A stretch of 64,000 nt of DNA from a virus (IMGVR_UViG_3300027763_000047:6308-70307); one strand, 5' to 3'; counted from the first letter of the stretch, positions 21,332 through 50,935 are shown. Numbers and translations are program-made. The notes: generated by a model from the sequence alone, not told the origin.

Positions 21332-21360
21332 TTGACATGGTACCATTTTGGCAGTATAAT
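21332..21360 (+). promoter_or_regulatory. perfect consensus sigma70 promoter
   Basis: ttgacatggtaccattttggcagtataat; leader nearly identical to the 19986 cassette. Confidence 0.7.
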
Positions 21361-21391
21361 TAACACATACACACAAACAGTTGGAACGATT

Positions 21392-29371: not shown

Positions 29372-29503
29372 GTACCGCTATAACTACCATTATATGCGTA
29401 GTTATAGCAGTTAAGTACAAGGTTATTCAAAAGATTTGTTAGTTAAATAATCTTGCTATATAATATGTTACTCAATGTAGTTCAATTTAAAAAAGGAAAA
29501 GTA

Positions 29504-30673
29504 ATGAAATTTACTCAAAAAATGCTGGCAGCAGCTTTACTGGCACTAGGTCTTGGATCTAGCGCAGCTCACGCCGCAGACTCGTCTGTGACACTATACG
29601 GTATCTTAGATGCCGGTCTCCAAGGCTCTTCACAAAGTTTGTCCAACGGTTACTCATCAAGTAATGTTGGATTGGCCTCTGGTGTGCAGTCAGGCAATCG
29701 CTTTGGTATCAAAGGTTCGGAAGATTTAGGTTCAGGTCTTCGTGCTACTTTTGCTCTTGAAGCAGGCTTCAACTTAGGTAGTGGTGTTAGTCAGCAAAAT
29801 GGCACCTTGTTTGGTCGTCAATCATGGGTTGGTGTTGAAAGCAGCTCGTTAGGTTACGCTCGTGTAGGTAAGCAATATAACTTTGCAACAGACTATGTTG
29901 GCGCAATTGATCCATTCCTCTTGGGATTTGGTCAGGCTAATATGGGTACCACATTCGGTGCTGCTAATACTACCCGTTATAACAACATGGTTAAGTATCA
30001 GACACCAACATGGAATGGCTTAACAGCTGGTGTTGGTTATTCGTTTGCTAACGGCTTGGCTAGTTTGTATGCTGATCCAGCTAACTACGGTGGATATGTT
30101 GCTGCTAACACATACAACTATGCCACAGCTAACAACGCTCGTACATTAACAGCTGGTATTAAGTATGCGTCTGGTCCCGTGACTGTTGTTGGTTCATATG
30201 ATGTTATGTATGGTCCTGAAAACATTGTTGGTTCAAATGCTGCTAATCCATCACAGTGGATTGTGGGCGGTGCGTATGACTTCTCAGTTGCTAAAATTGC
30301 TGCTGCGTACAGTCAGTCACGTAACGGTTGGATCAATGGACAAGCTAGTGTAGACCCAACATTCACAGCCAACACTTATAACAGTGGTGCCGGTGCCGTG
30401 TTGTATAGTCCTTCGTTTGGTGCTAACAGCTATCTAGTAGGTGCTACTGTTCCTGTAACAGGCGCACAGAAAGTATTTGCCAGCTATCAATATGCTACTC
30501 CGGTCGCATCAATGGCTGCTGCTGCTAATCTGAGCATTTATTCAGTTGGTTATCAATATGACTTGTCAAAGCGTACCAATGCGTATGCCTATGCTAGTCA
30601 GGCTCAAAACTATGCGTTCTTAGACGGTGCCAAGAGCACAGTTTATGGACTTGGTTTACGGCATCAGTTCTAG
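29504..30673 (+). CDS. Gram-negative outer-membrane porin (betaproteobacterial porin_4-like)
   Basis: signal peptide ending AHA-AD; VTLYGILDAG; C-terminal ...GLRHQF; start at ATG 29504 after AAGGAAAAG. Confidence 0.75.
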   Translation: MKFTQKMLAAALLALGLGSSAAHAADSSVTLYGILDAGLQGSSQSLSNGYSSSNVGLASGVQSGNRFGIKGSEDLGSGLRATFALEAGFNLGSGVSQQNGTLFGRQSWVGVESSSLGYARVGKQYNFATDYVGAIDPFLLGFGQANMGTTFGAANTTRYNNMVKYQTPTWNGLTAGVGYSFANGLASLYADPANYGGYVAANTYNYATANNARTLTAGIKYASGPVTVVGSYDVMYGPENIVGSNAANPSQWIVGGAYDFSVAKIAAAYSQSRNGWINGQASVDPTFTANTYNSGAGAVLYSPSFGANSYLVGATVPVTGAQKVFASYQYATPVASMAAAANLSIYSVGYQYDLSKRTNAYAYASQAQNYAFLDGAKSTVYGLGLRHQF

Positions 30674-30688
30674 AAGTAAAAGGATAAC

Positions 30689-31228
30689 ATGAACAAGTTT
30701 TTATCAATCGTTATCCTAGCACTGGCTTCCGCTTCAGCGGTTGCTGGTGGCTATGTAACAGCAACCGACGGCAGCATCGTTAAGACTGGTAGTGATTTGT
30801 GTTTACACACAGGTTATTACACAGCTACTGATGCAGTTAAAGGTTGTGACGCAGTTCCAGTTACCCCAGCTAAGCCAGCATCAATCACGCTTGACTCAGA
30901 TGTATTGTTTAAGTTTGATTCGGCAACGCTAACCGCAGACGGTGTGAAAGCACTGGACGTGGTTGCAGCCAAAGCCGGTGGCGTTGTAATCATCGTAGGA
31001 CACACTGATCGTATTGGATCTAGTCGATACAATCAATCTTTAAGTGTTGCTCGTGCTGACACCGTTGCAAAATATGTAGGTGCAAAGGCAAAAGCAGATT
31101 ACTCAGTAACTGGAGTTGGATCCACACAACCAAGTGGCAAAACAAAACAATGTATTGGCCCTATGAGCCCGCAACTTATTGCTTGTTTAGCACCTGATCG
31201 TCGTGTAGTTATTACTATCGTTAAGTAA
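30689..31228 (+). CDS. OmpA-family C-terminal domain protein (signal peptide)
   Basis: VIIVGHTDRIGSSRYNQSLSVARADTV OmpA-like motif. Confidence 0.75.
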   Translation: MNKFLSIVILALASASAVAGGYVTATDGSIVKTGSDLCLHTGYYTATDAVKGCDAVPVTPAKPASITLDSDVLFKFDSATLTADGVKALDVVAAKAGGVVIIVGHTDRIGSSRYNQSLSVARADTVAKYVGAKAKADYSVTGVGSTQPSGKTKQCIGPMSPQLIACLAPDRRVVITIVK

Positions 31229-31331
31229 CATGGCTTGGGCCTCTGCGGTTTAACCGTACGCCTGAGTTTTCTAAATATAGCAACAAAACCCTACCCTGCC
31301 TCTCGCAGAAGCACACTTTGGAGGGTTACTC

Positions 31332-31362
31332 GGGACACAGTAATGTGTCCCATTTCTTTCTC
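31332..31362 (+). terminator. rho-independent terminator
   Basis: gggacaca-gtaa-tgtgtccc followed by atttctttctc. Confidence 0.65.
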
Positions 31363-31391
31363 TTGACATTTAATTCATCAACAACTATACT
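31363..31391 (+). promoter_or_regulatory. sigma70-type promoter
   Basis: ttgacatttaattcatcaacaactatact. Confidence 0.6.
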
Positions 31392-31451
31392 GTTATTATA
31401 GCAGTAAGAAGAATTTTATGCAGGTAACTCTCAAGATTAGGAACTATTATA

Positions 31452-31628
31452 ATGATTAGACTTTGGTTAATATTTGTTGTACTTTCAATATTAATTCATT
31501 TGGGTATCTCCACCTGGAGAAATATGAAAGGTAAGGATCGATGGGCATTGACTAAGTCCATTGGTTATAGTATAATTGTTGCATTACTAGTTGTTCTATT
31601 CTTAACTTCAATCGTTATTTTATTCTAA
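31452..31628 (+). CDS. small two-TM membrane protein (58 aa), not in track
   Basis: MIRLWLIFVVLSILIHLG... Confidence 0.4.
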   Translation: MIRLWLIFVVLSILIHLGISTWRNMKGKDRWALTKSIGYSIIVALLVVLFLTSIVILF

Positions 31629-31636
31629 GGAATTAT

Positions 31637-32434
31637 ATGAAACAAATTTTTAAATTGGCAGTTGTAGCAGGTCTTATCGCAACCACAGTTGGTTGTCAGC
31701 GTATTGAAACCGGCGAAGTAGGTGTACGAGTTGGCTTTGATAAACAAGTAAAACCAGGCGAGTTGCAACCAGGTTCTTTTAATCAAACACTAATTGGTGA
31801 TGTACTTACATTCCCTGTTCGTGATGTATCAGTTAAGATTGATGACATGACTCCGCTTGCCAAAGACAACAGCACTATGAAAGACATGGATGTTACTGTT
31901 ATCTATAACATCAATCCAACGCAAGTTAGCGAATTGTATGTTAGCAAGAACCGTAGCTTTCACGTTAAGCACAATGGTGACACTTACTTGATGTACAACT
32001 ACATTTTCAATGCCGCACGAAATGCTGCTTACAAAGCTGCTCGTAAGTATGACGCATTGACTATGAACGACAGTCGTGCGTTAATGGAACAGGATATGAA
32101 AGACATCATTGCCAAGACCTTGGCAGATGAAAATCTTGCTGGTTCAATTACAGTAAGCCAAGTTCTTATTCGTGCGCTAACTCCAGCAGACTCAGTGGTT
32201 GCGTCAGCCAATGAATTGGTACGTTCTAAGAACGAGCTGTTGCAAAAGGAGGTTGAAGTCAAAACAGCCGAAGCAGAATCTCGTCGTATGGCAGCACTTA
32301 CCAATCAAAGCTCGGCCAGTATTGCTTACATGAATGCTCAGGCTGCGTTAAACATCTCCGAAGGTGTCAAGAACGGTAAGGTGCAGACCATTATTGTTCC
32401 CAGCAACATGACCGGCTTGATGATTGGCAAGTAA
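31637..32434 (+). CDS. SPFH/band-7 domain lipoprotein
   Basis: lipobox LIATTVGC; ETGEVGVRVGF...DVTVIYNINP SPFH-like core. Confidence 0.55.
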   Translation: MKQIFKLAVVAGLIATTVGCQRIETGEVGVRVGFDKQVKPGELQPGSFNQTLIGDVLTFPVRDVSVKIDDMTPLAKDNSTMKDMDVTVIYNINPTQVSELYVSKNRSFHVKHNGDTYLMYNYIFNAARNAAYKAARKYDALTMNDSRALMEQDMKDIIAKTLADENLAGSITVSQVLIRALTPADSVVASANELVRSKNELLQKEVEVKTAEAESRRMAALTNQSSASIAYMNAQAALNISEGVKNGKVQTIIVPSNMTGLMIGK

Positions 32435-33281: not shown

Positions 33282-33733
33282 CAAATCGTAGAGGATTTTT
33301 ACAATCAGTATCGGCAGCATTGGGGTCAACCCTGTTGTCTGGTAGTACAGTTGCATCAGTATTGACAGCCGCACCTGTAGCATCAGGAGTAGCCACAGTG
33401 GCCGCAGTTGCGGCAGTGGCCAGACAGTTTAAGTCGAGTGGTGTTGTTCTTGATGCTGCCACGCTTGAACCAATATCTCGGGTGGTGATATTTAATGGAG
33501 ACGAGTCAGTAATTAAAGAAGACGTGAAGTATTCTGAGATATTTGACGATCCGGCAAGACTAGCAGAAATTGAAGAATTGGATAAATTATATCCTAATTC
33601 CAATGTGCATAGTAAATGGACCTTGGCGGCGACACGTTTGGTACTGGAAAAGAAAGGCATGCCACCACTTACTGCCGAGGAAGAAATTATGATTATTGAA
33701 GGTCGAAAGCCCGTGGTTGGAGTCGAGGGATGA
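33278..33733 (+). CDS. Tat-signal (twin-arginine) secreted protein
   Basis: MTNRRGFLQSVSAALGSTLLSG... Confidence 0.5.
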   Translation: MTNRRGFLQSVSAALGSTLLSGSTVASVLTAAPVASGVATVAAVAAVARQFKSSGVVLDAATLEPISRVVIFNGDESVIKEDVKYSEIFDDPARLAEIEELDKLYPNSNVHSKWTLAATRLVLEKKGMPPLTAEEEIMIIEGRKPVVGVEG

Positions 33734-34302
33734 CGTGGCCATTGGCTTCTCCATTGAAAGAAAATACCAACTGGATCGTTAGGGATAACGTCTTTAGTAA
33801 TATTGAGCTTGATCAAATAATTAAATTAGGCAACAGTATTACCTCCAGTACCGGTACGATAGGTTCTGAAATAACTAACGAATATCGTAAATCCAGTATA
33901 GCCTGGCTGGATACTGAAGATCCAGAATTCGATTGGATATATGCCACGCTTGCACCAGTGATTACTGAAATCAATGATGCATATTATCGATTTGATCTGA
34001 AGTCCCTCCAGACTTTACAGTTTACCCGGTATACCACCGCTGGCGTATATAAACCGCATACCGATCTGGGTAGGCAAAAGCCCACTAGAAAGTTGAGTTT
34101 TACTGTACAATTATCTGATACGACAAATTACGAAGGTGGAGATTTGCGTTTTTTAAATTTAAAGACAACCCCCGAGTCAGCCCCCAGGGCTCGAGGAAAA
34201 ATTATTTTCTTCCCCAGCTGGATGACTCACGAGATAACTCCCGTGACCCAGGGTACACGATATAGTCTAGTTGGGTGGGTAGAAGGACCGTTATTCAGAT
34301 GA
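33730..34302 (+). CDS. 2OG-Fe(II) oxygenase (prolyl-4-hydroxylase-like)
   Basis: YKPHTDL (HxD), WMTHEI (His), RYSLVGW (Arg). Confidence 0.7.
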   Translation: MTWPLASPLKENTNWIVRDNVFSNIELDQIIKLGNSITSSTGTIGSEITNEYRKSSIAWLDTEDPEFDWIYATLAPVITEINDAYYRFDLKSLQTLQFTRYTTAGVYKPHTDLGRQKPTRKLSFTVQLSDTTNYEGGDLRFLNLKTTPESAPRARGKIIFFPSWMTHEITPVTQGTRYSLVGWVEGPLFR

Positions 34303-34417: not shown

Positions 34418-36358
34418 ATGAAAATACACGAAATTACCTTGTTATTCGAGGGTTATCCCCAAGCTCAAGATGCTTTTATTCAGCAATCGGGCGGTGATAC
34501 TGCATCAGTACAAAAAACTATCGCCGACTTTCGTCAGTTGGTGAATAGAAATCAGATCAAAGACACAAACCAAAAGAATATCGATTGGTGGGCCAAACAG
34601 GGCTGGGATAAGTTCAATGCTTTTGTCAATCAGGCATCAGCAATACCCAGCAAGACGCAAATGACCAGAAAGAAAATACCTGGGCAAAGCATCAACTTGG
34701 TGGATGATGCTCAGTGGCTCATCGTTGTGCCACTGGACAAGGAAGCCAGCTGTTTTCATGGAAGAAACAGCAGTTGGTGTACTACTAAAGTTCATCAGGA
34801 ACATTTTGAAAATTACTTCTACAACAATGAAGTAACCTTGATATATTGCTTTAATAAAGCCACTGGTGGTATGTGGGCTATAGCGGCACATAAAAGAACA
34901 GATCGCATGGAAATGTTTACACAACAAGATGCATCAATATCGGCAGAACAATTTACACAACTGACTGGTCTAGATCCTCAACAGTTACGATCCATGGCTC
35001 TGGGTGACGTTCATCAACCTGCAGTACAGGCATCCAGAGATCAATGGAAGGAATCTGTAGCATTGACAAAACAATTGATGGCTACAATGCCACGCGGCAC
35101 CAGATCGGCAGAAATAGAAAAGCAATTGGAGTATAATAAAGTAGGGGGATTATGCTTTGATTATATCTACCGATTTCAGTCAATTGAATCCAAAGACTTT
35201 CCGTTGTCGATACAGATATCGGCAATTAACAAAAATGGTGCCGTATTGGACCGAATCAATAATCCTGTTCAAGCTGTGCAACTGGCAGCAGTCAAGAAGG
35301 AAAATCTTGGGTTGAAAACCATCATTGCTCATGGAGCCAAGCCCAATGAAGCCGTACAACTGGCAGCAGTCACACAACACGGTCCTGCTATAGGTTTCCT
35401 GAAAGCCGCCGGCATCACTCCCAGCGAGGCTGTTCAAATGGCAGCAGTAAATCAGAGCGGTACTGCTATACATTCCATCATATCGAATGGTATCGTGCCC
35501 AGTGATGAGGTGCAAATAGCAGCAGTAACTCAGAATCCAGAAGCAATAAAATTCATAATCACAGATTTGGGCACTGAGCCAAGTCATGCTGTGCAAATGG
35601 CAGCAGTCAAACGTTACGGCGGAACGTTTCGAATGTTGATGAATCATGGAATTGTTCCCAGCAAAGACGTTCAAGAAGAAGCAATAGCCAGGGACGGCCT
35701 TAGTATACAATATTTGAAAAATCCCAATGAGAGATTACAATTGGCCGCAGTTAGCAATGTTGGCAGGGCTATATTGTTTATTCTCCGGGCCGGCATCAGA
35801 CCAAGTCACGCGGTGCAATTGGCAGCAGTGACGCAGGATGGGCTGGCACTCGATTATATCTTACAGGATAAAATTAAACCAGAGTATGATGTGCTATTAG
35901 CAGCAGTGACCCAGGATGGCCGTGCCATTGAATATATCCAAAATCCCGACGAGCGATTACAGATAGCCGCAGCCAAGAGAAATAGTGGTGCATTAAAACT
36001 TTTAATGAAAGCTGGAATAACCCCCAGTTATGCCGTACAGATGGCGTCAGTTACTCATGATCCCTGGTCTATAAAATATTTGAAAAATCCCGATGAGAGA
36101 TTACAATTGGCCGCAGTCAACAATCATGGTGGTGCATTACATGAAATAATCAAATCTGGAATTCTTCCCAGCGAGGCGGTACAATTGGCCGCGGTCAAAT
36201 CAAGCCCCATAGTATTACGTATGATCCAAAATCCCAGCATGGCGGTTCGCGACGCTGCACACATAGCAGCACAAGAGAAAAAAGCTCAAGAGGATGCTGC
36301 TATAAACGCTGCCAGAGCTGCCAGAGCTGCTCAAGGTGCCCAAGCAGCACCGGCCTAA
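34418..36358 (+). CDS. repeat protein with about 14 tandem ~37-aa repeats (DUF4116-like)
   Basis: repeats P-S-x-A-V-Q-[LM]-A-A-V-x-Q-x-G-x-A-[IL]-x-[YF]-[IL]; TATAAATA 10 nt upstream. Confidence 0.55.
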   Translation: MKIHEITLLFEGYPQAQDAFIQQSGGDTASVQKTIADFRQLVNRNQIKDTNQKNIDWWAKQGWDKFNAFVNQASAIPSKTQMTRKKIPGQSINLVDDAQWLIVVPLDKEASCFHGRNSSWCTTKVHQEHFENYFYNNEVTLIYCFNKATGGMWAIAAHKRTDRMEMFTQQDASISAEQFTQLTGLDPQQLRSMALGDVHQPAVQASRDQWKESVALTKQLMATMPRGTRSAEIEKQLEYNKVGGLCFDYIYRFQSIESKDFPLSIQISAINKNGAVLDRINNPVQAVQLAAVKKENLGLKTIIAHGAKPNEAVQLAAVTQHGPAIGFLKAAGITPSEAVQMAAVNQSGTAIHSIISNGIVPSDEVQIAAVTQNPEAIKFIITDLGTEPSHAVQMAAVKRYGGTFRMLMNHGIVPSKDVQEEAIARDGLSIQYLKNPNERLQLAAVSNVGRAILFILRAGIRPSHAVQLAAVTQDGLALDYILQDKIKPEYDVLLAAVTQDGRAIEYIQNPDERLQIAAAKRNSGALKLLMKAGITPSYAVQMASVTHDPWSIKYLKNPDERLQLAAVNNHGGALHEIIKSGILPSEAVQLAAVKSSPIVLRMIQNPSMAVRDAAHIAAQEKKAQEDAAINAARAARAAQGAQAAPA

Positions 36359-36441
36359 AAGGCAGCATAATTTAAATGAGGACCTTGGCGCTCTATGTAT
36401 CAGTTTTGGCTAACTAGGTCAAGAAAAATAATAAATTATGG

Positions 36442-36470
36442 TTGACATTTAATCAAAGGTCAGCTATAAT
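36442..36470 (+). promoter_or_regulatory. perfect consensus sigma70 promoter
   Basis: ttgacatttaatcaaaggtcagctataat. Confidence 0.7.
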
Positions 36471-36542
36471 GTAGTTGTAGTATGTAGTTAAGTTTAACTT
36501 TTATTTTAATCAACTTTGAAAGGCATCTTAGAAAGGCATCTT

Positions 36543-36866
36543 ATGAAACAAGAAAATTTATTTAAAGTAGCAGGTACCTCCAACCATAATGGAGAAATTA
36601 AAGTACGTTTTGCCAATGACTTGGTATCGCGTATTAAGGCCCTGCATCGCGCAGGTCACACTGATGTTAACCTCGTTGAGCTACCCAAGCCAATGACCAA
36701 ACTGGAAGCAGTTCAGTATCTGCAGTCAGTTGGATACAATCAAGGTGACGTTGGTTATATCGTATCAGCTAAATTGGCTGAGAAAACCAAAATCGCCAAG
36801 AAAGGCGAAGTTAAGGTTAAGTCTGCAAAGGTTAGTAAACCAGCTAAAGTCGCTGAAACAGTTTAA
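36543..36866 (+). CDS. small protein with lysine-rich C-terminal tail (possible DNA-binding)
   Basis: KTKIAKKGEVKVKSAKVSKPAKV tail; alternative ATG 36516. Confidence 0.45.
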   Translation: MKQENLFKVAGTSNHNGEIKVRFANDLVSRIKALHRAGHTDVNLVELPKPMTKLEAVQYLQSVGYNQGDVGYIVSAKLAEKTKIAKKGEVKVKSAKVSKPAKVAETV

Positions 36867-36878
36867 TTTTTCAGCAAA

Positions 36879-36904
36879 AAGGCGGCTAACAAGCCGCTTT
36901 TCCA
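36879..36904 (+). terminator. rho-independent terminator
   Basis: ggcggct-aaca-agccgc followed by ttttcc. Confidence 0.55.
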
Positions 36905-36925
36905 CGAACTCGAATAATTAAATAT

Positions 36926-37168
36926 ATGAGTGAACAGGAAGTAGTGGAACCATTTCGGTTAGCCATCATGGAGATCATGATGATTTTACATAAACATGGT
37001 ATTAGGGAAGTACACATAGGTGCTATGATGCGCCTAGTCGGCGTGGAAGAAGAAGATGCAAAAATCTGTGATGATGAGCGTATTATGTTAACCGAAGACT
37101 TTACCGAATATGTAAATCAAGTGTTGGCGTTATCATCTGTCAGCAGTGAAAATCAAACTTTACATTAA
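36926..37168 (+). CDS. small hypothetical protein
   Basis: 80 aa. Confidence 0.45.
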   Translation: MSEQEVVEPFRLAIMEIMMILHKHGIREVHIGAMMRLVGVEEEDAKICDDERIMLTEDFTEYVNQVLALSSVSSENQTLH

Positions 37169-37410
37169 TGTCCGTCCCAGTATTTAAGAATATCGAATCA
37201 GTATATATTGTTATCTTACGGACGCAGGACGCAAAAAGTCTACTTCAAAAATGGCTATCATCAAATCGTTACGCATCGGCTCGTGTTGATGACAATCGAC
37301 TGTATATAAACGATCATAATACTTACAATTTGTTCCTGGTCACATGGTCACATGGTTGGGATAACATCTTAGTATGGGATTGTTATATGAAGCGACACAT
37401 TTACATTTAA
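37168..37410 (+). CDS. small hypothetical protein
   Basis: 80 aa. Confidence 0.45.
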   Translation: MSVPVFKNIESVYIVILRTQDAKSLLQKWLSSNRYASARVDDNRLYINDHNTYNLFLVTWSHGWDNILVWDCYMKRHIYI

Positions 37411-37471
37411 CCAAAAAATTTGTAGTATATGTCGTATAGTGTATAATTAACAATACTATAAAGGAAATACT

Positions 37472-37660
37472 ATGTCAACACATGAACAAATCGTAGCAGC
37501 TTACGAAAACTACTTGGCTGAAAATGCTAAGTTCAGCGACAAAGGTGTTAAAGCCGCCGCCGCCCGTGCCAGAAAATCTCTACAGGAAATCGCCAAGGCT
37601 GTCAAAGTACGCCGTGCTGAGATCACCACAGAAAAAGAAGCACTGACTCCAGCGAAGTAA
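37472..37660 (+). CDS. small basic protein
   Basis: KAAAARARKSLQEIAKAVKVRRAEI. Confidence 0.4.
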   Translation: MSTHEQIVAAYENYLAENAKFSDKGVKAAAARARKSLQEIAKAVKVRRAEITTEKEALTPAK

Positions 37661-37851
37661 TGACTACGCACACACGTATCGTTATGGAAAACCCAGAAAA
37701 TCCAGAGGAATTAATTCTGGACCTGGGTGAAGAAATTTGTGGTCCCCTCGGTTGGAAAGAGGGTGACACAATAGTATGGACAGATATGGGAAATGGATCA
37801 TGGCAGCTAACAAAGCAACAAACGACCCTAACAACACCACAGCAACAGTAG
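37660..37851 (+). CDS. small hypothetical protein
   Basis: 63 aa. Confidence 0.4.
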   Translation: MTTHTRIVMENPENPEELILDLGEEICGPLGWKEGDTIVWTDMGNGSWQLTKQQTTLTTPQQQ

Positions 37852-38264
37852 CCCCCTCACTGACCTCTGTAATTAACGGCGGGTATGTTACCACCAGTAC
37901 CACTGGTCCGGTGTACTACACTGGTGGTGGCATTGTCGGCGGCGGCGGCTATGCCGGTGGTGCTGGATTTGGCGGTGGTAATACTGCTATAGGCATTGGG
38001 TCATGGTCCAGTCAGCCAGCACCAGCCACAATCACTGCCGGCACACTAGAGCTATCGGGCGATAAAGCTGATATTAAAATCAATGGTGTCAGTCTAAATG
38101 ACACTTTAACAGCTATACAAAAAAAATTAGATGTATTAACCGTCAATCCTAAATTAGAAAATGAATGGGACAAGCTCAAGGAATTGGGTGAACAATATCG
38201 CAAGCTGGAAGCCGAACTTGCAGAAAAATCTCGTATGTGGGCAGCTTTAAAAAAGACTGAGTGA
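37776..38264 (+). CDS. glycine-rich protein with C-terminal coiled coil
   Basis: GGGIVGGGGYAGGAGFGGG; start uncertain (overlaps previous ORF). Confidence 0.4.
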   Translation: MDRYGKWIMAANKATNDPNNTTATVAPSLTSVINGGYVTTSTTGPVYYTGGGIVGGGGYAGGAGFGGGNTAIGIGSWSSQPAPATITAGTLELSGDKADIKINGVSLNDTLTAIQKKLDVLTVNPKLENEWDKLKELGEQYRKLEAELAEKSRMWAALKKTE

Positions 38265-38830
38265 TGAAAATTAAATATTTTTCATTACTGGTCTTGTTGG
38301 GATTGGGCGGGTGTTTAACTACACCCGTTCTAGACTCTACACTAACATCGGTTGACTATGAATTAATGGATGCATTGATCTATGAAAGAACACCAACTCC
38401 ATTGGTTAAAACTCCACTATTTTCTCCCAAGGACATTGAATGTCTGGCCCGGAATATATATTACGAATCAGGAGCAGAGCCACTTGAAGGCAAAGTTGCT
38501 GTGGCTGTGGTAACCATCAATCGCTCGAAAGATGAGAGATTTGGTTCAAAAACGCTATGCGGCATTATATACACAAGAACAAATATAGGCAAGGGTGTGA
38601 TAGTTTGCCAGTTTAGCTGGACCTGTGGTACTAAAATTCCAATTAAAAAAGATAGTGAGCATTGGCGGTTATCCAAGGAAGTTGCTGAGAACATAGCTCG
38701 TGGCGATTACAGTGAGTACTCGTACAAATATCGAAAAGCCCTATTCTTTCACGCTGTATCAGTCAAGCCATCATGGGCTTATGTCAAGCGTGTAGTAGCC
38801 CGTATCGGCGGCCATGTATTTTATGAATAG
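38261..38830 (+). CDS. SleB-like cell-wall hydrolase (Hydrolase_2), lipoprotein
   Basis: lipobox LLGLGGC; ECLARNIYYESGAEPLEGKVAVAVVTINR...QFSW. Confidence 0.65.
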   Translation: MMKIKYFSLLVLLGLGGCLTTPVLDSTLTSVDYELMDALIYERTPTPLVKTPLFSPKDIECLARNIYYESGAEPLEGKVAVAVVTINRSKDERFGSKTLCGIIYTRTNIGKGVIVCQFSWTCGTKIPIKKDSEHWRLSKEVAENIARGDYSEYSYKYRKALFFHAVSVKPSWAYVKRVVARIGGHVFYE

Positions 38831-38831
38831 C

Positions 38832-38860
38832 TTGACAATTAAATCCGCTGTTACTATAAT
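38832..38860 (+). promoter_or_regulatory. perfect consensus sigma70 promoter
   Basis: ttgacaattaaatccgctgttactataat; ATG 38867 only about 6 nt after the -10. Confidence 0.65.
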
Positions 38861-38866
38861 AGCTTT

Positions 38867-39259
38867 ATGACAATGCATCTACTCCCCCCGCTGTATTCGA
38901 CCACAGGCAAAAAGAAAGGTCGCTATAAATTCGCATCTGCTGAGCAAAAACAGCAAGCTGAAGCTAATAAGGAAGAGTGGCAGCGTAAACTAAATGAATT
39001 TAATCGACTATCACCCTCTGTAAGGACGTCAAAGAGCCCTATGCCCACACTAAGCAAATCGCTACCCCGTATTCCCACCAGCCGTCAAACAGCTCACATT
39101 GAGTCCCTAGTAACCACCTGGGGTCCTTGCCTTAAGGTAGAAGATATGCAGTACACTGGCAACAAAATTAAGGGCATTGGCACAATGCATAAATCAAATG
39201 CGGTGCCGGTATTCAGTGACGAAGAAGCTGTTGAAATTTCACAAATGCGGAGAGGCTAA
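38867..39259 (+). CDS. hypothetical basic protein
   Basis: 130 aa. Confidence 0.45.
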   Translation: MTMHLLPPLYSTTGKKKGRYKFASAEQKQQAEANKEEWQRKLNEFNRLSPSVRTSKSPMPTLSKSLPRIPTSRQTAHIESLVTTWGPCLKVEDMQYTGNKIKGIGTMHKSNAVPVFSDEEAVEISQMRRG

Positions 39260-39260
39260 G

Positions 39261-39710
39261 ATGAGCGTAACAGATAATACAACCGATTTATTTACAACTT
39301 TATTTGATTTTGATTCGACCAGTGAGCTTTTGAAGACTAAACCAACTGCACCTCGCCCAACATGTGTAAATCATGGATGTAGTAAGCCAGTTGCATCGGA
39401 TGGTAAGCGTTGGCGTATTCATTGCGGACATTGCCAAGGTGCAAGTTACGGAAGAAACCCTCACGCAGCCGGAGTTACCCCATTAAAAACAGGTATTTGT
39501 TCAAATATTGATGGACATTTAGGATTTCCCTGTGTGATAGACTGGAAAAAAGTTCCAGAATTTGCTAAAGGCATGACTGAAATTGACCATATTGACGGCA
39601 ATCATTTGAATAATTCTATTAGCAACCTTAAAGAACTATGTCCCATTTGTCATAAACTTAAAGGACAACGAGCCGGCGATTTTAAACGCGGTAGATACAC
39701 ACATAAATAA
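39261..39710 (+). CDS. HNH endonuclease
   Basis: Cys-rich; IDHIDGNHLNN...LCPICH motif. Confidence 0.7.
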   Translation: MSVTDNTTDLFTTLFDFDSTSELLKTKPTAPRPTCVNHGCSKPVASDGKRWRIHCGHCQGASYGRNPHAAGVTPLKTGICSNIDGHLGFPCVIDWKKVPEFAKGMTEIDHIDGNHLNNSISNLKELCPICHKLKGQRAGDFKRGRYTHK

Positions 39711-39739
39711 CTGCTCATAACAGGAGATAATAAAACAAA

Positions 39740-39961
39740 TTGAGTAAATCAGATGATGTAATTAAAATGGAGGGTGTAATCACCGAAGTATTACGAAACA
39801 CGAATTATCGTGTTAAAATTGAAAACATTGAAAATCACATTCTCGCTACACTAAGCGGGAGAATACGCCAAAATAATATCAAAGTACTTACAGGCGACAG
39901 AGTACAGTTAGATATATCACCCTACGACCTATCTCGTGGTAGAATTACACGTAGGCTATGA
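39740..39961 (+). CDS. infA: translation initiation factor IF-1 homolog
   Basis: EGVITEVLRNTNYRVKIEN...LSGRIRQNNIKVLTGDRVQLDISPYDLSRGRI aligns with bacterial IF-1; TTG start. Confidence 0.85.
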   Translation: MSKSDDVIKMEGVITEVLRNTNYRVKIENIENHILATLSGRIRQNNIKVLTGDRVQLDISPYDLSRGRITRRL

Positions 39962-40521
39962 TTTTAATAAATACCTACATGAGAGATTTATTAAACTTAG
40001 TGGAAGCAGCAACCGTTTCAGCTAAACTGGAAACTACCCCACTACCCTACGCACATAAAGATCTGGCTCCCATAATGAGCGCAGACACAATAGAATACCA
40101 CTACGAGCACCTGGCTAAAGGCTACGCTAAAAAGTACAATGCCGGCGAAGGTGATGCCGATTTCAACCGTGCTGGCAGCTTCTTACACAACAAATTCTTT
40201 CCCCAATTGCAAGCACCAAAAGGTGCCAACCGTCCCAAGGGTGCGGTGCTAGAACTCATTGAAGCTAACTTCAAAACTTACGAAGATTTCAAGGTAGCGT
40301 TCAAAGAAGCTGCCATGAAGATTCAGGGATCGGGTTGGGTTTATCTCAGCACAGGTGGAACTATTAAAACCATACGAAATCATCAGGTTCGTACCGATAT
40401 TTGTGTACTGGTTGACTGGTGGGAACATTCATGGTCGACGGATTACAAGTGGGATAAAGAAAAGTATCTAGATAATATCTGGAAAATTATCAACTGGAAC
40501 GTATGTTCGGAGAGAATATGA
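39958..40521 (+). CDS. divergent Fe/Mn superoxide dismutase-like protein
   Basis: [37 protein letters not shown] resemble SOD N- and C-domain signatures. Confidence 0.65.
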
Positions 40522-40844
40522 TCACACTAACTGAAAACGCCGCGATTAAAATTAAAGATTTATTAGCAGAAGAAAACAATCCCAAGCTAAAACTTCGTGT
40601 ATTCGTTCAGGGCGGCGGATGCAGTGGAATGCAGACAGGCTTTACCATGGATGAAGAACAAGCTGACGATGACTGGGAGGTCGAAGTCAATGGCGTTCAT
40701 TTGTTAGTAGATAGTATGAGTAGTAATTATTTAAAAGGTTCAACCGTGGATTATCGCGATGATATCAATGGATCTGCCTTTGTTATCACTGGCATGGAAG
40801 CCACAACGACATGTGGCTGTGGTAGTAGTTTTTCACCATATTAA
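40518..40844 (+). CDS. Fe-S cluster insertion protein, ErpA/IscA/HesB family
   Basis: [14 protein letters not shown]...CGCGSSF conserved cysteines. Confidence 0.8.
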
Positions 40845-40901
40845 GCCCCGAATGACATAGACATTACTTTAGCTAAATAATAAGAGCTAAAGAGGACGGA
40901 T

Positions 40902-42323
40902 ATGTCGCAACAAATTATTAATGTAGGTACGGCGCCCAACGATGGTTTGGGAACTCCAATACGTACTGCTTTTCAGTACACAAATAATAACTTCACGCAA
41001 CTGTTTTCGTTGCCGAATCCTACACCCCCAACTACCCTAGTGGGCAAAGCGGGCGATGTCCCGGGTATGTATGCATACAGCGCGGCATATTTTTACTACT
41101 GTTTTGGAACTTATGATGGTTCCACTGTTATTTGGGCACAGATTGCCCAGGGTAATACCTCAATCTCAAATATCGTTAATGGCACTAGTAATGTAAGAAT
41201 CGGTAGTGCCAATGCCAATGTAACCGTGGGAGTAAACGGTACAGCAAATATTGCAGTTTTCAGTAATACTGGAGTATCAGTAACTGGTAATATTAGAACC
41301 TCTGGACAAATAACAGCCACTGGTAATGTATATGGTAATGCCATTGTCGGCACTTACTTGTACGGAGATGGCAGCAATATTAGTAACATATCAGGTGGCG
41401 GGAATTACAGTAATACCAATGCAGCAGCATATCTACAGGTACTAACTTCAAATGTATCAACAACTGGCAACATAACCGGAAGTTATATTTTAGGCAATGG
41501 TAGAAATTTAACTGGATTACCGTTAACCTATGGCAATGCTAACGTTGCTAACTTTTTACCAGTATTTACTGGTAACATATTATCAAGTAATATGACCGCT
41601 ACTGGAAACGTGCATGCCGGAAATATTAAAACGGTGGGAATAGTTTCAGCAACAGGAAACATCACTACTGACGGATATTTTATTGGCAATTTCGTTGGGA
41701 ACATATCAGGTAACTTAGTAGTGCCTGGATCGAATACTCAAGTACTTTATAATGATAATGGAAATGCTGGAGCAAGCGCCGGGTTAATATTTAACTCTGC
41801 ATCAAACATTTTATCAGTAACGGGAAATGTGTATGGCAATTATTTTCTTGGTAACGGTAGTCAATTAACAGGGTTACCAGTTACGTATGGCAATGCCAAT
41901 GTGGCTGCTTATCTACCAACTTATACCGGCAACATAACAGCAGGTAATATCAGTACCACTGGAAATATAACAGCTAGCTATATTTTAGGTAATGGTAGTC
42001 AATTAACTGGCATCGCCGCCACCGGCATAAATGCAAACGCACTAACTGGATCTACCTTATCAAGCAATGTTACTACCAGCAGCTTGACTTCTGTTGGTAC
42101 TTTGGCAAATTTAAGTGTAACCGGCAATGTAGTGGCATCTGGGGTAGTGACTTCTACCGGCACATTTAGATTGCCTAGTTATACTACCGCACAAATTGCC
42201 AACATATCAGCGGTAGAAGGAGATATGGTTTATAATTCAACTGTACAACAAATACAAGCATATCAAGCAAATGCCACAGGTAACGTAACATGGGTAAGTT
42301 TAAGTGTGTCTACTTACCAGTAA
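40902..42323 (+). CDS. tail fiber protein
   Basis: N-term MSQQIINVGTAPNDGLGTPIRTAFQYTNNNFTQLF; ILGNGSQLTG modules shared with the giant fiber. Confidence 0.8.
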   Translation: MSQQIINVGTAPNDGLGTPIRTAFQYTNNNFTQLFSLPNPTPPTTLVGKAGDVPGMYAYSAAYFYYCFGTYDGSTVIWAQIAQGNTSISNIVNGTSNVRIGSANANVTVGVNGTANIAVFSNTGVSVTGNIRTSGQITATGNVYGNAIVGTYLYGDGSNISNISGGGNYSNTNAAAYLQVLTSNVSTTGNITGSYILGNGRNLTGLPLTYGNANVANFLPVFTGNILSSNMTATGNVHAGNIKTVGIVSATGNITTDGYFIGNFVGNISGNLVVPGSNTQVLYNDNGNAGASAGLIFNSASNILSVTGNVYGNYFLGNGSQLTGLPVTYGNANVAAYLPTYTGNITAGNISTTGNITASYILGNGSQLTGIAATGINANALTGSTLSSNVTTSSLTSVGTLANLSVTGNVVASGVVTSTGTFRLPSYTTAQIANISAVEGDMVYNSTVQQIQAYQANATGNVTWVSLSVSTYQ

Positions 42324-42334
42324 TGGAGTAACTT

Positions 42335-45076
42335 ATGACAGCACAGCCTATTTGGATTACTCCCCCTGGTAGTTTAGGTACTGTACCAGAAGGTGCTTAC
42401 TACGAAGTACCACTGCGTGTTACCGATACGTTTACCACTGACCTCATAGGTATCGTGGGTAGTGGATCTTCAGTCACAGCTACATTTTATACTCAGACAG
42501 TATCCATGTTCCAACCTGGTGATACTGTTGTGGTCACTGGAGTTAACCCGTCATCTTATAACGGTAGCTTTATAGTAACCAAATGTACCACTACACAAAT
42601 TACATATACGAGTTCGGCTACCGGTACTTGGATCGGTGGCGGTACTATCACTTCCGTGCCATCGACTGTATATTTTGAATCTATTGCTGGCGCATTACCC
42701 GATGGTATTGAATGCACGACATCTGGCGTACTACAGGGTACTCCTACCAATGTGGTTACAGTGGCAGATGAAGCATTGGTAGTGGGAGTCAATGTTACCA
42801 GTAAATTTGCTATTAGGGCCTATACAACCAAAACAGTTGGTGGCATTACTGTCATTAATAGATTAGCCGATAGAACATTTACTATAACGGTCGCTGGGCA
42901 AAATCTACCCAGTTGGATCACACCTGCGGGCGAACTTAGTCAGCTATGGGTAGGTGAATTGTTGTCCCCAGGTATACAATTAGATTATACTACTGATAAT
43001 ACAACTGGAATTCCGCCGGCTATCAGCTTGTATTCGGGGAGTTTGCCCCCGGGAATTACAGTTAGTGATACTGGCTTAATTTCTGGATTTGTTGGCTTAA
43101 ATCCAACAACATCTGCTCAACCTGGATTCAGTGTTAACGGTCAAGGATTTAGTACATACCCATTTGATTTTGATATAGAAGCACAAAATTCCACATATAC
43201 ATTTACACTACAGGTTACTGATGGTCGAATATCTGCATTACGAGAATTTAGCCTATTCGTATGGAGTACTGAGGCATTTACTGCTGACACTACCTTGATC
43301 ACAGCTGATAACACCTATCTAACAGCCAGCATATCCAGTGTTAATACCCCAGTGATAACAAACCCTCAGGGATCTATTGGCACCACATACAGCAATACAT
43401 ATTTTGCTTACCAATTTGTGGGGAAGAATATTACCGGAGACACTATAGGGTATACTGGTGCTTCGTTACCCACAGGGTTAACACTTAATTCAACAACTGG
43501 ATGGTTAACCGGATACTTACCTACAATTGGGCTATTCGAATCTACTTTTGATTTTACAGTAACCGCATACCTAACCAACTCGCCATCAGTGACTAGTGAT
43601 CCATATGATTTTAGCCTGACAGTTGAAGGACCTATATTCTCCAATGTGACCTGGCTCACACCCTCCAACTTGGGCACCATTGCCAATGGGTCCACCAGTA
43701 TATTTTATGTTGAGGCGACCAATACTACTAACACAAATTTACAGTATCAATTAGTATCAGGATCAGATTCAAAATTACCGCAGGGATTAACTCTATTGCC
43801 ATCAGGTAATATTGCTGGGCGTGTAAGTTTTAATGCATACCCCACCCCCGCTCAGTATGGTAGCACAGTATACACCTTTACAGTAAACGCTTACAGTACT
43901 AATGGATTTATCAGTGTTAATAAAACGTTCTCCATCACGGTGGAGCGTGTCTACGAGACACCTTATCAAAACTTGTATATCCAATGTATGCCGCCGGTTG
44001 ATGATCGAGAATTGATTGCTAGTTTACTGCAAAATTCTACTATCTTTACTCCGTCACTACTATATCGTCCCGATGATACTAACTTTGGATTGAGTCGCAA
44101 TGTCGTGTATCATCATGCATATGGATTAAATGCTGCCAGCGTGGATACCTATGTATCCTCACTTCAACTTAACCACTACTGGAAGAATTTACTCTTGGGA
44201 GAAATTAAAACAGCACAAGCTGTCGACCCTTTAACAGGTAATGTAGTGTACGAAGTAGTATATTCGGAAATCATAGATAGCTTAGTCAACAATGACAATC
44301 TAAGTGTTGGCAAAGAAGTGGTGCTGGCCTATCCAATAGAAGAGCAAACAATTGATGTAGTGTACCCTAATTCGCTTGATAACATGAGAGATCAGGTAAT
44401 TGACGTAGTGGGACAGGAGAGTGACCTGTTACCGTTATGGATGCAGAGTTCCCAAGCAGATGGTAAAGTTTTAGGGTTTATCCCAGCATGGGTAATTGCA
44501 TATACAATACCAGGGGCGTCGGGGCAGATACAATACAATATACAGACACAGTTTGGAATCCAATTAAATCTAGTGGATTTTGTAGCCGATCGGTATGAGC
44601 TTGATAACGCTCTTACAGTTAACTGGGATGGCAACACACAAAGTTGGGTACCAAGCCCACCGGAGACGACATCATTTGACATCAATTACCACTATAATGT
44701 CACTATAGGCACAGCAGGCAATGTATACCTAGCGGGTGATCAAATTAAGATCTTAGGCTCGTCACTGGGCGGGGTAACTCCTGCTAATGATTTACTCATA
44801 ACGGTCAATACTGTAAATACCAATGGTGCCATCCTTGATGCATTCTATTATGGTACTGCCAATAGCGCAGCGGCTGGTAATTCCTATGATAACTTAGCCG
44901 GGGTAAATGTAGTTGGTCCAGGCACTGGGGCCACTTGGGATATTACTGTAGTACCAGGAGTCGAAACTGTATTTGACGGGGGAAGCGTTACCTTTATTGC
45001 TCCAGCAGATACAGATACCAGCTCCACTGCTAACGACAAATACTTGTTGTATCCCAAATACAATATATTAGTTTAA
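42335..45076 (+). CDS. tail fiber/structural protein (913 aa)
   Basis: Ser/Thr/Gly/Asn-rich beta-rich composition; directly downstream of fiber gene. Confidence 0.55.
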   Translation: MTAQPIWITPPGSLGTVPEGAYYEVPLRVTDTFTTDLIGIVGSGSSVTATFYTQTVSMFQPGDTVVVTGVNPSSYNGSFIVTKCTTTQITYTSSATGTWIGGGTITSVPSTVYFESIAGALPDGIECTTSGVLQGTPTNVVTVADEALVVGVNVTSKFAIRAYTTKTVGGITVINRLADRTFTITVAGQNLPSWITPAGELSQLWVGELLSPGIQLDYTTDNTTGIPPAISLYSGSLPPGITVSDTGLISGFVGLNPTTSAQPGFSVNGQGFSTYPFDFDIEAQNSTYTFTLQVTDGRISALREFSLFVWSTEAFTADTTLITADNTYLTASISSVNTPVITNPQGSIGTTYSNTYFAYQFVGKNITGDTIGYTGASLPTGLTLNSTTGWLTGYLPTIGLFESTFDFTVTAYLTNSPSVTSDPYDFSLTVEGPIFSNVTWLTPSNLGTIANGSTSIFYVEATNTTNTNLQYQLVSGSDSKLPQGLTLLPSGNIAGRVSFNAYPTPAQYGSTVYTFTVNAYSTNGFISVNKTFSITVERVYETPYQNLYIQCMPPVDDRELIASLLQNSTIFTPSLLYRPDDTNFGLSRNVVYHHAYGLNAASVDTYVSSLQLNHYWKNLLLGEIKTAQAVDPLTGNVVYEVVYSEIIDSLVNNDNLSVGKEVVLAYPIEEQTIDVVYPNSLDNMRDQVIDVVGQESDLLPLWMQSSQADGKVLGFIPAWVIAYTIPGASGQIQYNIQTQFGIQLNLVDFVADRYELDNALTVNWDGNTQSWVPSPPETTSFDINYHYNVTIGTAGNVYLAGDQIKILGSSLGGVTPANDLLITVNTVNTNGAILDAFYYGTANSAAAGNSYDNLAGVNVVGPGTGATWDITVVPGVETVFDGGSVTFIAPADTDTSSTANDKYLLYPKYNILV

Positions 45077-45121
45077 CAATCAAATACGCTAAATAATAGA
45101 AACAATTAAGGAATACAGAAC

Positions 45122-46024
45122 ATGACCAGTGCAATAAATCCAAACAACATCAATGGCGCTTACCCAGTAGCGGGCCAAGATAATAATTCACAGGGGTTTC
45201 GTACTAATTTTACAAATACTTCGACCAACTTCCAGTATGCAGCACAAGAAATCACAGACTTACAGGGCAAAGTCGTGGTAAATGCACAGTTATCTGGCGG
45301 CGCGAACTTGTCAGTTCAAAACAACATGTTAAACTCTCCACTAACCAATGCGTTGGTAGCTGATTTTGCCTACACCACCGTTGGCCTTGGTAGTGTAAGC
45401 GGATCGTTTACTGTAAATTATGCAGTGGGTCATTATCAAACAGCCACACTAGCTGGCAGTGCAAGTGTAGCATTTACCAACTGGCCTATCTCCGGACAGA
45501 CAGGTGTGGTAACTTTGCAGGTTACCGTACCAAATACAGCATATACCCTGACACTACCCACGGCAGTCAGTCAAAATATTAACGGGATACAGGGTCTTGT
45601 GTATCCAGCAGGTGCTAGCCCAGTGATTCAATTTGCCGCGACCGGAGTTTATACTTTTGTATTCTCTACTAGCACAAATGGATCTACTATTATCATTAAT
45701 CAAAACAATGAAATACTGACCCCACTAAACAGCTCTAAAGAATCTGTAACAAGTGCCGCTGCTGCTAGCCTAGCAACAACTACCTCATTCTTTACCACAG
45801 CAGGAACCGCCACGCTGGCCAACGGAGTCGAGGGTCAGATCAAAGTGTTCACGCAAACTGCATCAGCCTCCATGGTTATTACGGTGGCCAGTGCCGGTTG
45901 GAACTCAGCAACATCGGGAACTTCTGGTACTATTACGCTGGCAGCTAGAGGTGCTGGATGCACCCTACAGTATACCAATTCGGTTTGGTACTGTATTGGT
46001 AATAACGGCGCTACGTTTGGTTAA
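45122..46024 (+). CDS. structural (fiber-like) protein
   Basis: Ser/Thr/Ala-rich 300 aa; CTAAATAATA late-promoter-like motif upstream. Confidence 0.5.
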   Translation: MTSAINPNNINGAYPVAGQDNNSQGFRTNFTNTSTNFQYAAQEITDLQGKVVVNAQLSGGANLSVQNNMLNSPLTNALVADFAYTTVGLGSVSGSFTVNYAVGHYQTATLAGSASVAFTNWPISGQTGVVTLQVTVPNTAYTLTLPTAVSQNINGIQGLVYPAGASPVIQFAATGVYTFVFSTSTNGSTIIINQNNEILTPLNSSKESVTSAAAASLATTTSFFTTAGTATLANGVEGQIKVFTQTASASMVITVASAGWNSATSGTSGTITLAARGAGCTLQYTNSVWYCIGNNGATFG

Positions 46025-49594: not shown

Positions 49595-50162
49595 TTGTGA
49601 CGGAGTATGTTTAGATTGGGAATGGGCATTTAATATCTGGATGTATCAACACGGATTTGAAGAAATTCCTGGTGCCAAACTAAACTATGACATGTCTGTA
49701 CGTTATGGCATTCCGCGTGAACAAGTAGTTAAACTGATCCGCATTTTTAATGAAAGTGCGTCTATCGGATTCTTGCCGCCCATGCGTGATGCCATGTATT
49801 ATATCAAAAGATTGCATGAAGAATTTGGTTATAAGTTTCATGCCATTACTTCATTGAGTTTAGATCCTAATGCTCAGAAGCTAAGGGAAATGAATCTTCA
49901 TAAGTTATTTGGTCCTACCGCATTTGAGCGTATTGTATGTTTAGATACTGGTGCTGATAAAGATGAGGCGTTGGCAGAATATAAAGACTCCGGATATTAT
50001 TGGATTGAAGATAAGTGGGCCAATGCTGAAGCCGGCTATAAAGCCGGCCTCAGGTGTATCGTGTTAGAACATGGTCATAATATGTACGAGTATCATCCAG
50101 AAATTACTATCTTAAAAAACTGGAAAACAATATTTGACCATATTACCGATCAGTCGGAATAA
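49557..50162 (+). CDS. HAD-superfamily phosphatase (5'-deoxynucleotidase-like)
   Basis: IILTDCDGVCLDW (DxDG motif). Confidence 0.5.
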   Translation: MKYLPKQKIILTDCDGVCLDWEWAFNIWMYQHGFEEIPGAKLNYDMSVRYGIPREQVVKLIRIFNESASIGFLPPMRDAMYYIKRLHEEFGYKFHAITSLSLDPNAQKLREMNLHKLFGPTAFERIVCLDTGADKDEALAEYKDSGYYWIEDKWANAEAGYKAGLRCIVLEHGHNMYEYHPEITILKNWKTIFDHITDQSE

Positions 50163-50935
50163 AGGCGAAGCACGGAATCAATGATTCTGTGCCGCTGTAT
50201 GTCGCGACTATCTAGCTCGCACACAGCTATTCCATTTACACCTCCTTTCAACAATCTTTGGCATAAATCTGCGAGGCCGTTGTTACCTTTAGTGCGGTCA
50301 GCTTGTTCAATATCTCCCGTAATGACGATTTTACTGCCTTCGCCGATACGTGTCATTAGCATCTTACATTGTGCCGGAGTAGCATTCTGCATCTCATCAG
50401 CTATAATGTATGCGTTTTTAAAGGTTCTACCCCTCATAAACGCAAGTGGTGCTATCTCTATTTTTTGATCCTCTAACATACCAGCAATATCCTGCTGACG
50501 ATAATATTCACGAAGAATATCAGTTAAGGGCCTTACCCATGGATCCATCTTTTGGTTTAAATCTCCTGGTAAAAATCCATGTTTTTCATCTTCTACGCCA
50601 ACTGCTGGTCGTGTTAGGATTATACGATCAACTTCTCCTTCGCGGAATGCCTTAACAGCGGCTAGCATAGCAAGGTAAGTTTTACCTGTACCAGCTGGAC
50701 CTGCTGTGATTACAATATGTTGACTTTCATCTTGCAATGCCAATACCAATCGCTCTTGATTTCGTGTACGGGGCACGATATCAATGGGACGTTGTTTTAA
50801 GGGTTTTGCTTGATTGAAGTTTATTGTATTTTCTTGAAATACCGTATCACGGCGTTGTGATTTTACTGCTTTGTGTCTACTCATTAAAGCCTCATGTAGA
50901 AGTAAGTTACTGCTATCAGCACCTTGCTGACCCAA
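50150..50935 (-). CDS. phoH: PhoH-like ATPase
   Basis: ITAGPAGTGKTYLAM and YIIADEMQN. Confidence 0.85.
   Translation of the reverse strand: MGQQGADSSNLLLHEALMSRHKAVKSQRRDTVFQENTINFNQAKPLKQRPIDIVPRTRNQERLVLALQDESQHIVITAGPAGTGKTYLAMLAAVKAFREGEVDRIILTRPAVGVEDEKHGFLPGDLNQKMDPWVRPLTDILREYYRQQDIAGMLEDQKIEIAPLAFMRGRTFKNAYIIADEMQNATPAQCKMLMTRIGEGSKIVITGDIEQADRTKGNNGLADLCQRLLKGGVNGIAVCELDSRDIQRHRIIDSVLRLYSD

Follow-up and report, generated by a model that had tools for sequence, protein, structure and literature searches.

Iron/manganese superoxide dismutases (SodFMs) have been sorted into five subfamilies, which were defined on cellular genomes only, phage sequences not being sampled (PMC10172142). 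SodFM3 and SodFM4 are marked by a C-terminal His and SodFM4, in addition, by loss of the last His of the HXXXHH motif; both form tetramers with long N-terminal helices (PMC10172142). Escherichia coli SodB (SodFM2) and SodA (SodFM1) are canonical dimers. In canonical enzymes His30 and Tyr174 hydrogen-bond across the dimer. The gene analysed here lies in a 64,000-nucleotide stretch of viral DNA (IMGVR_UViG_3300027763_000047:6308-70307; the whole of this stretch is called the window) and had been described from the sequence as a divergent Fe/Mn superoxide dismutase (SOD)-like gene, coupled to genes for translation initiation factor IF-1 and an iron–sulfur (Fe-S) protein. With a probability of roughly 0.66, the open reading frame (ORF) encodes a catalytically competent minimal Fe/Mn SOD of a freshwater jumbo phage, co-transcribed and translationally coupled with IF-1 and the Fe-S cluster carrier ErpA.

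The ORF was present exactly as described, and the motifs named by the original prediction were all read in its translation (residues 28-44, the LPY region; 46-56; 75-87; GSGW, 124-127; DWWEH, 153-157). Pfam Sod_Fe_C (PF02777) was matched over the whole profile at 3.8e-20 (72.3 bits against a cut-off of 20.9) and Sod_Fe_N (PF00081) at 1.5e-6 (29 bits against 27; profile positions 5-48 of 82 only), far beyond chance; the proposed SOD-like identity was thereby borne out, and both parts of the two-domain SodFM fold, the N-terminal alpha-hairpin and the C-terminal alpha/beta domain, were recovered. By phmmer, 155 solved Fe/Mn SODs were matched at E<=1e-3 (best 3e-23); among the PHROGs no family was found for the protein. 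Profile–profile comparison and structure prediction, which had both been proposed as checks, gave the same answer: hhalign of the short family described below against canonical SODs returned a probability of 100% (E 1e-55), and archaeal SodFM3/4-type enzymes, also among the best PDB sequence matches, were the best Foldseek matches of the model.

In the hhalign register (E. coli SodA numbering), H48 was aligned with His26, H77 with His81, H142 with Gln146, D153 with Asp167 and H157 with His171. H48, H77, D153 and H157 are the equivalents of the metal ligands (His26, His81/73, Asp167/156 and His171/160 of SodA/SodB), H142 is the C-terminal water-coordinating residue, Y56 corresponds to the gateway Tyr34, E156 to the dimer-bridging Glu170 and L151 to position X(D-2), and the interface motifs GSGW and DxWEH were intact (G124, G126, W127, W155). 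Codons were read directly for H48 (CAC, 40099-40101), H77 (CAC, 40186-40188), H142 (CAT, 40381-40383), D153 (GAC, 40414-40416) and H157 (CAT, 40426-40428). The E. coli SodA and SodB references used for numbering align with the expected invariant H26, H81, D167 and H171. The alteration of the N-terminal His block to YHYEH, which had also been predicted, was seen again: residues 46-56 stand where the canonical H-x3-H-H block would be and read H48-YEH-L52-A53, with L52 and A53 in the places of His30 and His31; S160 takes the place of Tyr174. By hhalign, a single deletion, of 26 residues relative to SodA, was placed in the tip of the alpha-hairpin. The first two ligand His are 29 residues apart, against 47-55 in the canonical enzymes of the same hit list, and in the AlphaFold2 model the hairpin helices span only residues 42-61 and 67-83.

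These features are shared by a distinct short family of Fe/Mn SODs to which the protein belongs, as judged from sequence. In an exhaustive search, 1.84 billion cluster representatives yielded 2,753 matches at E<=1e-3, 43 of them at E<=1e-30, and the nearest were proteins of 170-190 residues. In alignments of 44 and 50 short-family members, reaching down to 29% identity, H48, H77, G124, G126, W127, D153, E156 and W180 were invariant and P38, Y56, G73, L76, H142, W155 and H157 at least 90% conserved. The spacing between the first two ligand His was 27-29 in the family, a few sequences being intermediate at 32-41; the His31 equivalent was Thr, Ala or Tyr, and X(D-2) was Leu or Ile in 26/31 representatives. 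Position 142 was His, or Gln in P0131, the two residues seen at the water-coordinating site in SodFMs (PMC10172142). Before the LPY motif the family carries its own predicted amphipathic helix (residues 2-18 in the AlphaFold2 model, with a predicted local distance difference test score, pLDDT, of 69-79), whose pattern (I/V)R..(I/L).(L/I)(V/L)E recurs in the family, PA5oct included, but has no counterpart in E. coli SodA or SodB. Of the 20-residue N-terminal extension that had been predicted, the extension itself proved real, its length being 21 residues from M1 or 14 from M8; relatives have mostly 180-184 residues and begin at the M8 equivalent, and the first seven codons may for this reason not be translated. 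Several metagenomic members (P0121-P0127, of 247-368 residues, P0153 and P0189) bear extra segments, namely Lys-rich or unknown C-terminal tails of 80-200 residues and, in P0189, an N-terminal domain of 470 residues. P0121-P0127 were considered as SOD-ErpA or IF-1-SOD fusions and rejected, the segments being unrelated; none of the members with extra segments is a fusion to IF-1 or ErpA.

Compared by published diagnostic residues, the phage SOD resembles SodFM3/4 (Aeropyrum pernix 3AK2, Acidilobus 4FFK, Pyrobaculum 1P7G) in its C-terminal water-coordinating His (H142), in Gly at the position of FeSOD Gln69 (G73) and in Leu before the second ligand His (L76-H77, as in GHxLH), and SodFM4 in missing the last His of HXXXHH. 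Unlike these, it has a far shorter hairpin (29 against 47-55) without the long helices, has lost both the fifth and the sixth residue, His, of HXXXHH, further than SodFM4, has Leu or Ile at X(D-2), carries the extra N-terminal helix and is phage-borne. Identity to E. coli SodB and SodA was 26-34%; the spacing of the first two ligand His is 18 residues shorter than in SodB, neither the N-terminal Gln of the SodB type nor the C-terminal Gln of the SodA type is present, His standing at the C-terminal position instead, and His30, His31, Tyr174 and a passing score against either NCBIfam equivalog are all missing. [quoted passage not shown]

The gene stands in a compact block (Table 1). Its start codon overlaps the IF-1 stop (ATG at 39958, stop at 39959-39961) and its own stop overlaps the ErpA start (ATG at 40518, stop at 40519-40521), each as ATGA read in the sequence, so that both of the predicted couplings are real. 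IF-1 passed the TIGR00008 equivalog (93.6 bits against 61.15) at a length close to the ~72 residues of the S1-like factor, and ErpA passed NF010147 (151.8 bits against 117) with three conserved Cys (GGGCSG ... TCGCG). In IMG/VR, relatives of the SOD were carried by 225 viral contigs of up to 344 kb; the single-protein scan reached only relatives of at least 76% identity, and deeper synteny comes from look-ups of individual loci. Among the best 80 IMG/VR loci, picked by SOD similarity, the order was cell-wall hydrolase, p130, IF-1, SOD, ErpA and a large repeat protein. IF-1 lay upstream of the SOD in 77/78 loci with room for it, ErpA downstream in 72/78 (abutting or overlapping in 57) and p130 upstream of IF-1 in 68/80; the gene module that the original prediction had postulated is conserved. 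In the remaining loci insertions of 0.15-2.4 kb part IF-1 from SOD or SOD from ErpA (gaps within L011-L086); mobile insertions seem to favour the block, whose gene order survives nonetheless. The HNH endonuclease gene between p130 and IF-1, found at this spot only in the nearest relatives of the window and absent from most related loci, is probably such an insertion. The order IF-1, SOD, ErpA, large protein, Ig-domain protein was kept around a SOD of 40% identity (P0146), and IF-1 lies directly upstream of a 48%-identical SOD (L008).

Table 1. Features of the SOD gene block and its surroundings (window coordinates)
Feature	Position	Strand	Details
Predicted promoter, perfect sigma-70 consensus (TTGACA-17-TATAAT)	38832..38860	+	12/12 match
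p130, conserved protein of unknown function, first gene of block	38867..39259	+	130 aa; phrog_27048, E 2.5e-27
HNH endonuclease gene between p130 and IF-1	39261..39710	+	Pfam HNH / HNH_3; a 149-aa gene call in L004 maps here
Translation initiation factor IF-1	39740..39961	+	73 aa, TTG start; PF01176 1.3e-18; TIGR00008 infA equivalog
Short Fe/Mn SOD	39958..40521	+	187 aa; alternative start 39979, giving 180 aa
Family-specific N-terminal amphipathic helix of the SOD, before the LPY motif	39979..40032	+	codons 8-25
ErpA-type A-type Fe-S cluster carrier	40518..40844	+	108 aa; PF01521 1.7e-17; Cys...CGC motif
Weaker promoter-like site	40852..40881	+	10/12 consensus match; within the 57 nt that precede the 473-aa repeat protein

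Selection was estimated on the same best IMG/VR loci, with the caveats that these had been picked by SOD similarity and that dS (synonymous divergence) was near saturation at 1.1-1.3. Median identity and dN/dS (nonsynonymous over synonymous divergence) were 79% and ~0.07 for the SOD, 66% and 0.14 for IF-1, 65% and 0.20 for ErpA and 49% and 0.21 for p130; within the block, constraint is strongest on the SOD. Upstream of p130, a match of at least 11/12 to the sigma-70 consensus was found in 35/71 related loci, compared with 2% of 120-nt windows taken at random, and on the strength of the match and this enrichment transcription by the host sigma-70 polymerase is suggested, the site likely starting a transcription unit p130-(HNH)-IF-1-SOD-ErpA. 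Its -10 hexamer ends 6 nt before the first ATG of p130 (TATAAT-AGCTTT-ATG), the distance being ~30 nt in relatives, and because of this short interval the p130 mRNA could be leaderless or nearly so; the operon with this start also encodes an IF-1. The weaker site downstream of ErpA may mark where the module ends.

The short family is almost confined to phage contigs. Contigs of up to 375 kb that carry relatives were found in JGI, ENA and Logan assemblies, and contigs from freshwater lakes carried the identical SOD protein. A search with positions 36000-46000 for near-identical DNA among cultured phages gave no match, and the phage of the window is therefore an uncultured one. By tblastn, 23/50,697 phage records matched the SOD, the best being eleven PA5oct-like Pseudomonas jumbo phages (37%) and Vibrio phage 2.275.O (39.5%); weaker phage matches, in unannotated records, resemble ordinary bacterial-type SODs. 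In BFVD only two viral SOD folds were found, the nearer being A0A6J5L7W0 (182 residues, 50% identical, template modelling score 0.90), which bears the name superoxide dismutase already. Close relatives were present in 1/185,579 species genomes, the metagenome-assembled genome Haliscomenobacter sp. EUL_031, on two contigs with the phage synteny; these are probably binned contigs of two related phages and possibly a clue to the host. The two EUL_031 copies (L091 and L092) differ, with 73% and 81% identity. More distant members of the short family had phage-like contexts with many small ORFs lacking a Pfam match.

Members of the same family in described jumbo phages are PA5oct EST35_0261, the 'sodB' of Callisto and MIJ3 (Wroclawvirus), NVP2275O_049 of Vibrio phage 2.275.O and A0A6J5L7W0 of an uncultured Caudovirales phage, and they share the ligands, the short hairpin and the N-terminal helix with the window SOD (37-50% identity). 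Their surroundings differ: the PA5oct gene is preceded by ClpX, S21, IbpB and ClpS genes and followed by FtsH, that of Vibrio phage 2.275.O is accompanied by IF-3, S21 and a ClpS-like gene, and in none of them is IF-1 or ErpA adjacent. At one further SOD locus (L009) ClpS was a neighbour. In the window, no homologs of S21, IF-3, ClpS, IbpB or KTSC were found by tblastn; a ClpA/ClpB-like double AAA+ chaperone (55702-57981; Clp_N, AAA, AAA_2, ClpB_D2-small) parallels the ClpX/ClpS/FtsH/IbpB set beside the PA5oct-like SODs. EST35_0261 (3004-3552 of locus L090) is annotated as 'hypothetical protein' with the GenBank note 'ESI-MS/MS', a label given in PA5oct to the 93 gene products that were found when purified phage was analysed, FtsH included. 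The detection by mass spectrometry means that the homolog is made; packaging is not proven thereby, as virion-unrelated enzymes were detected too.

An active enzyme is the simplest reading of these data, because the residues that bind the metal and position the solvent are kept under strong purifying selection in an otherwise variable family; it is further supported by position 142, the one position that varies, which does so between His and Gln, residues known to work there. In such an enzyme an Fe or Mn ion would be held by H48, H77, D153 and H157 and would cycle between the 3+ and 2+ states, dismuting superoxide, while Y56 and H142 would position the metal-bound solvent and E156 with the GSGW and DWWEH surfaces would maintain the usual dimer contact. 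The distal alpha-hairpin, a segment away from the active site that in cellular enzymes builds the tetramer or outer dimer surface, has been deleted, the His30-Tyr174' relay lost and the N-terminal helix gained. Host RNA polymerase would transcribe the SOD together with IF-1 and ErpA, probably from the near-consensus sigma-70 promoter, and translation of the three would be coupled. E. coli ErpA inserts [4Fe-4S] clusters under aerobic conditions, and with SOD and ErpA together, [4Fe-4S] enzymes that are sensitive to superoxide would stay functional in an aerobic infected cell once host expression declines.

Several observations weigh against catalytic competence. The proton-relay residues His30 and Tyr174, both nearly invariant in the canonical set, are not retained: the His30 equivalent was Leu in 25/31 short-family representatives and the Tyr174 equivalent was variable across the family. 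This paired loss suggests a rewired, possibly slower proton relay, and turnover may be reduced since both residues sit in the canonical relay. Activity depends on oligomerisation, which the shortened hairpin and the added N-terminal helix could both change. The window SOD lies far below the NCBIfam equivalog cut-offs (NF007832, SodB, 81.1 against 348; NF008177, SodA, 29.5 against 363; NF041312, 69.3 against 300). By analogy with PAP4 (FSD3) of the plastid RNA polymerase, a SOD fold that keeps its ligands can serve mainly as a structural subunit. Searches of the literature for Fe/Mn SODs of phages yielded nothing but poxvirus homologs of Cu/Zn SOD and papers on unrelated subjects.

The last analogy leads to a reading in which the protein keeps its metal site and is an accessory subunit on translation or proteostasis machinery, either as a local shield against reactive oxygen species or as a structural partner. 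It was judged unlikely. Gene neighbourhoods with translation and proteostasis genes in two lineages suggest it, and precedents exist in PAP4/PAP9 (FSD3/FSD2) on plastid RNA polymerase and in mS42/mS43 of the mitoribosome, to all of which the phage SOD has fold similarity, as well as in an intact Andalucia SOD on the mitoribosomal small subunit (PMC7947838). mS42 and mS43 have lost the metal site (PMC7947838), unlike the phage family, which strictly keeps it; a free enzyme would show the same strict conservation of ligands and second sphere. The adjacency, moreover, may merely reflect host-like gene clustering within a conserved jumbo-phage gene order, the lineages are effectively two and the pattern was noticed post hoc, and the window holds no S21, IF-3 or ClpS homolog. 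The more specific form of this reading, docking by the N-terminal helix onto a translation or proteostasis apparatus brought by the phage (IF-1 in the window phage; S21, IF-3 and ClpS in the PA5oct-like and Vibrio phages), or onto the virion, is quite unlikely. If docking were true, it would be a viral repeat of the recruitment of SOD folds to mitoribosomes and plastid RNA polymerase. Delivery in the virion, the protein entering with the DNA and acting at the start of infection, is compatible with an active SOD and was thought improbable to a like degree: the mass-spectrometric flag on the PA5oct homolog and the proximity of the window gene to large tail-fibre-like genes (40902..45076) would fit it, but the PA5oct list also includes '7 virion-unrelated enzymes', with FtsH flagged, so that carry-over of abundant cytoplasmic proteins is likely, and the near-consensus sigma-70 promoter points to a gene that host polymerase expresses inside the cell rather than to a late virion gene.

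It is very unlikely that the protein is instead a metal-binding partner of ErpA, an iron donor or store for Fe-S insertion held at a fixed ratio by the coupling and not a dismutase. In 57/72 ErpA-bearing loci the SOD stop touches or overlaps the ErpA start, the order is kept at 40% identity and ErpA, with its Cys...CGC motif, passes its equivalog cut-off; yet 6/78 loci have no ErpA beside the SOD, in 15 the pair is split by insertions, no ErpA is adjacent in the PA5oct and Vibrio phage lineages, and the conserved equivalents of Tyr34, of the water-coordinating His/Gln and of Glu170 are specific to catalysis and needless for metal storage. We know of no precedent for a SodFM as iron donor. The docked subunit, the ErpA partner and the virion protein each leave room for SOD activity. 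A decaying passenger recently taken from the host and functionless in the phage is hardly credible: a host-like origin and the mobile HNH insertions that flank the gene in some relatives speak for it, and it is contradicted by the selection and distribution data, namely a dN/dS of ~0.07 in the most conserved gene of the block, an intact ORF in more than 225 viral contigs, failure of the cellular equivalog models, and close relatives in a single species genome, itself a metagenome-assembled genome with the same phage synteny.

Automatic annotation in JGI, UniProt and some GenBank records already names the gene Fe-Mn SOD, and the basic identification is therefore not new. In the searchable literature, no description was found of a SodFM family that is carried by phages, truncated in the hairpin and fitted with an N-terminal helix of its own, nor any mention that His30, His31 and Tyr174 are lost in it or that its coupling to IF-1 and ErpA is conserved. 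Fe/Mn SODs are a model for metalloenzyme evolution, and as a natural minimal version the phage family would show which parts of the scaffold catalysis and dimerisation can spare; the enzyme is small and probably robust. The conserved pair of SOD and ErpA points to an active defence of Fe-S metabolism by giant phages of oxic freshwaters while they infect, and the recurrent proximity to phage-encoded translation factors offers a hypothesis that can be tested cheaply. Should the protein be an ordinary SOD, the result would be a tidy refinement of annotation and not a discovery; interest is moderate, mainly for specialists in metalloenzymes and jumbo phages.

Elsewhere in the window, positions 40902-45076 encode a 473-residue protein rich in (T/S)GN(I/V) repeats, without a family match, and then a 913-residue protein with a He_PIG Ig-like domain; both are probably tail-fibre proteins, and their position right after IF-1/SOD/ErpA is kept in relatives. 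A 2,324-residue ORF on the minus strand (10463-17437) had no Pfam or PHROG match. Auxiliary genes encode a 2-oxoglutarate (2OG)-Fe(II) oxygenase (33730-34302), an Eco57I-like methylase (21332-22429), a GT4 glycosyltransferase of the 'conflict system' type (6140-7222) and PhoH (50150-50935, minus strand). At 29453-32434 a Gram-negative porin gene (Porin_4, 2e-41) is followed by genes for an OmpA-family protein and an SPFH/Band-7 protein; such a cluster of envelope genes is uncommon in phages and may give a clue to the host.
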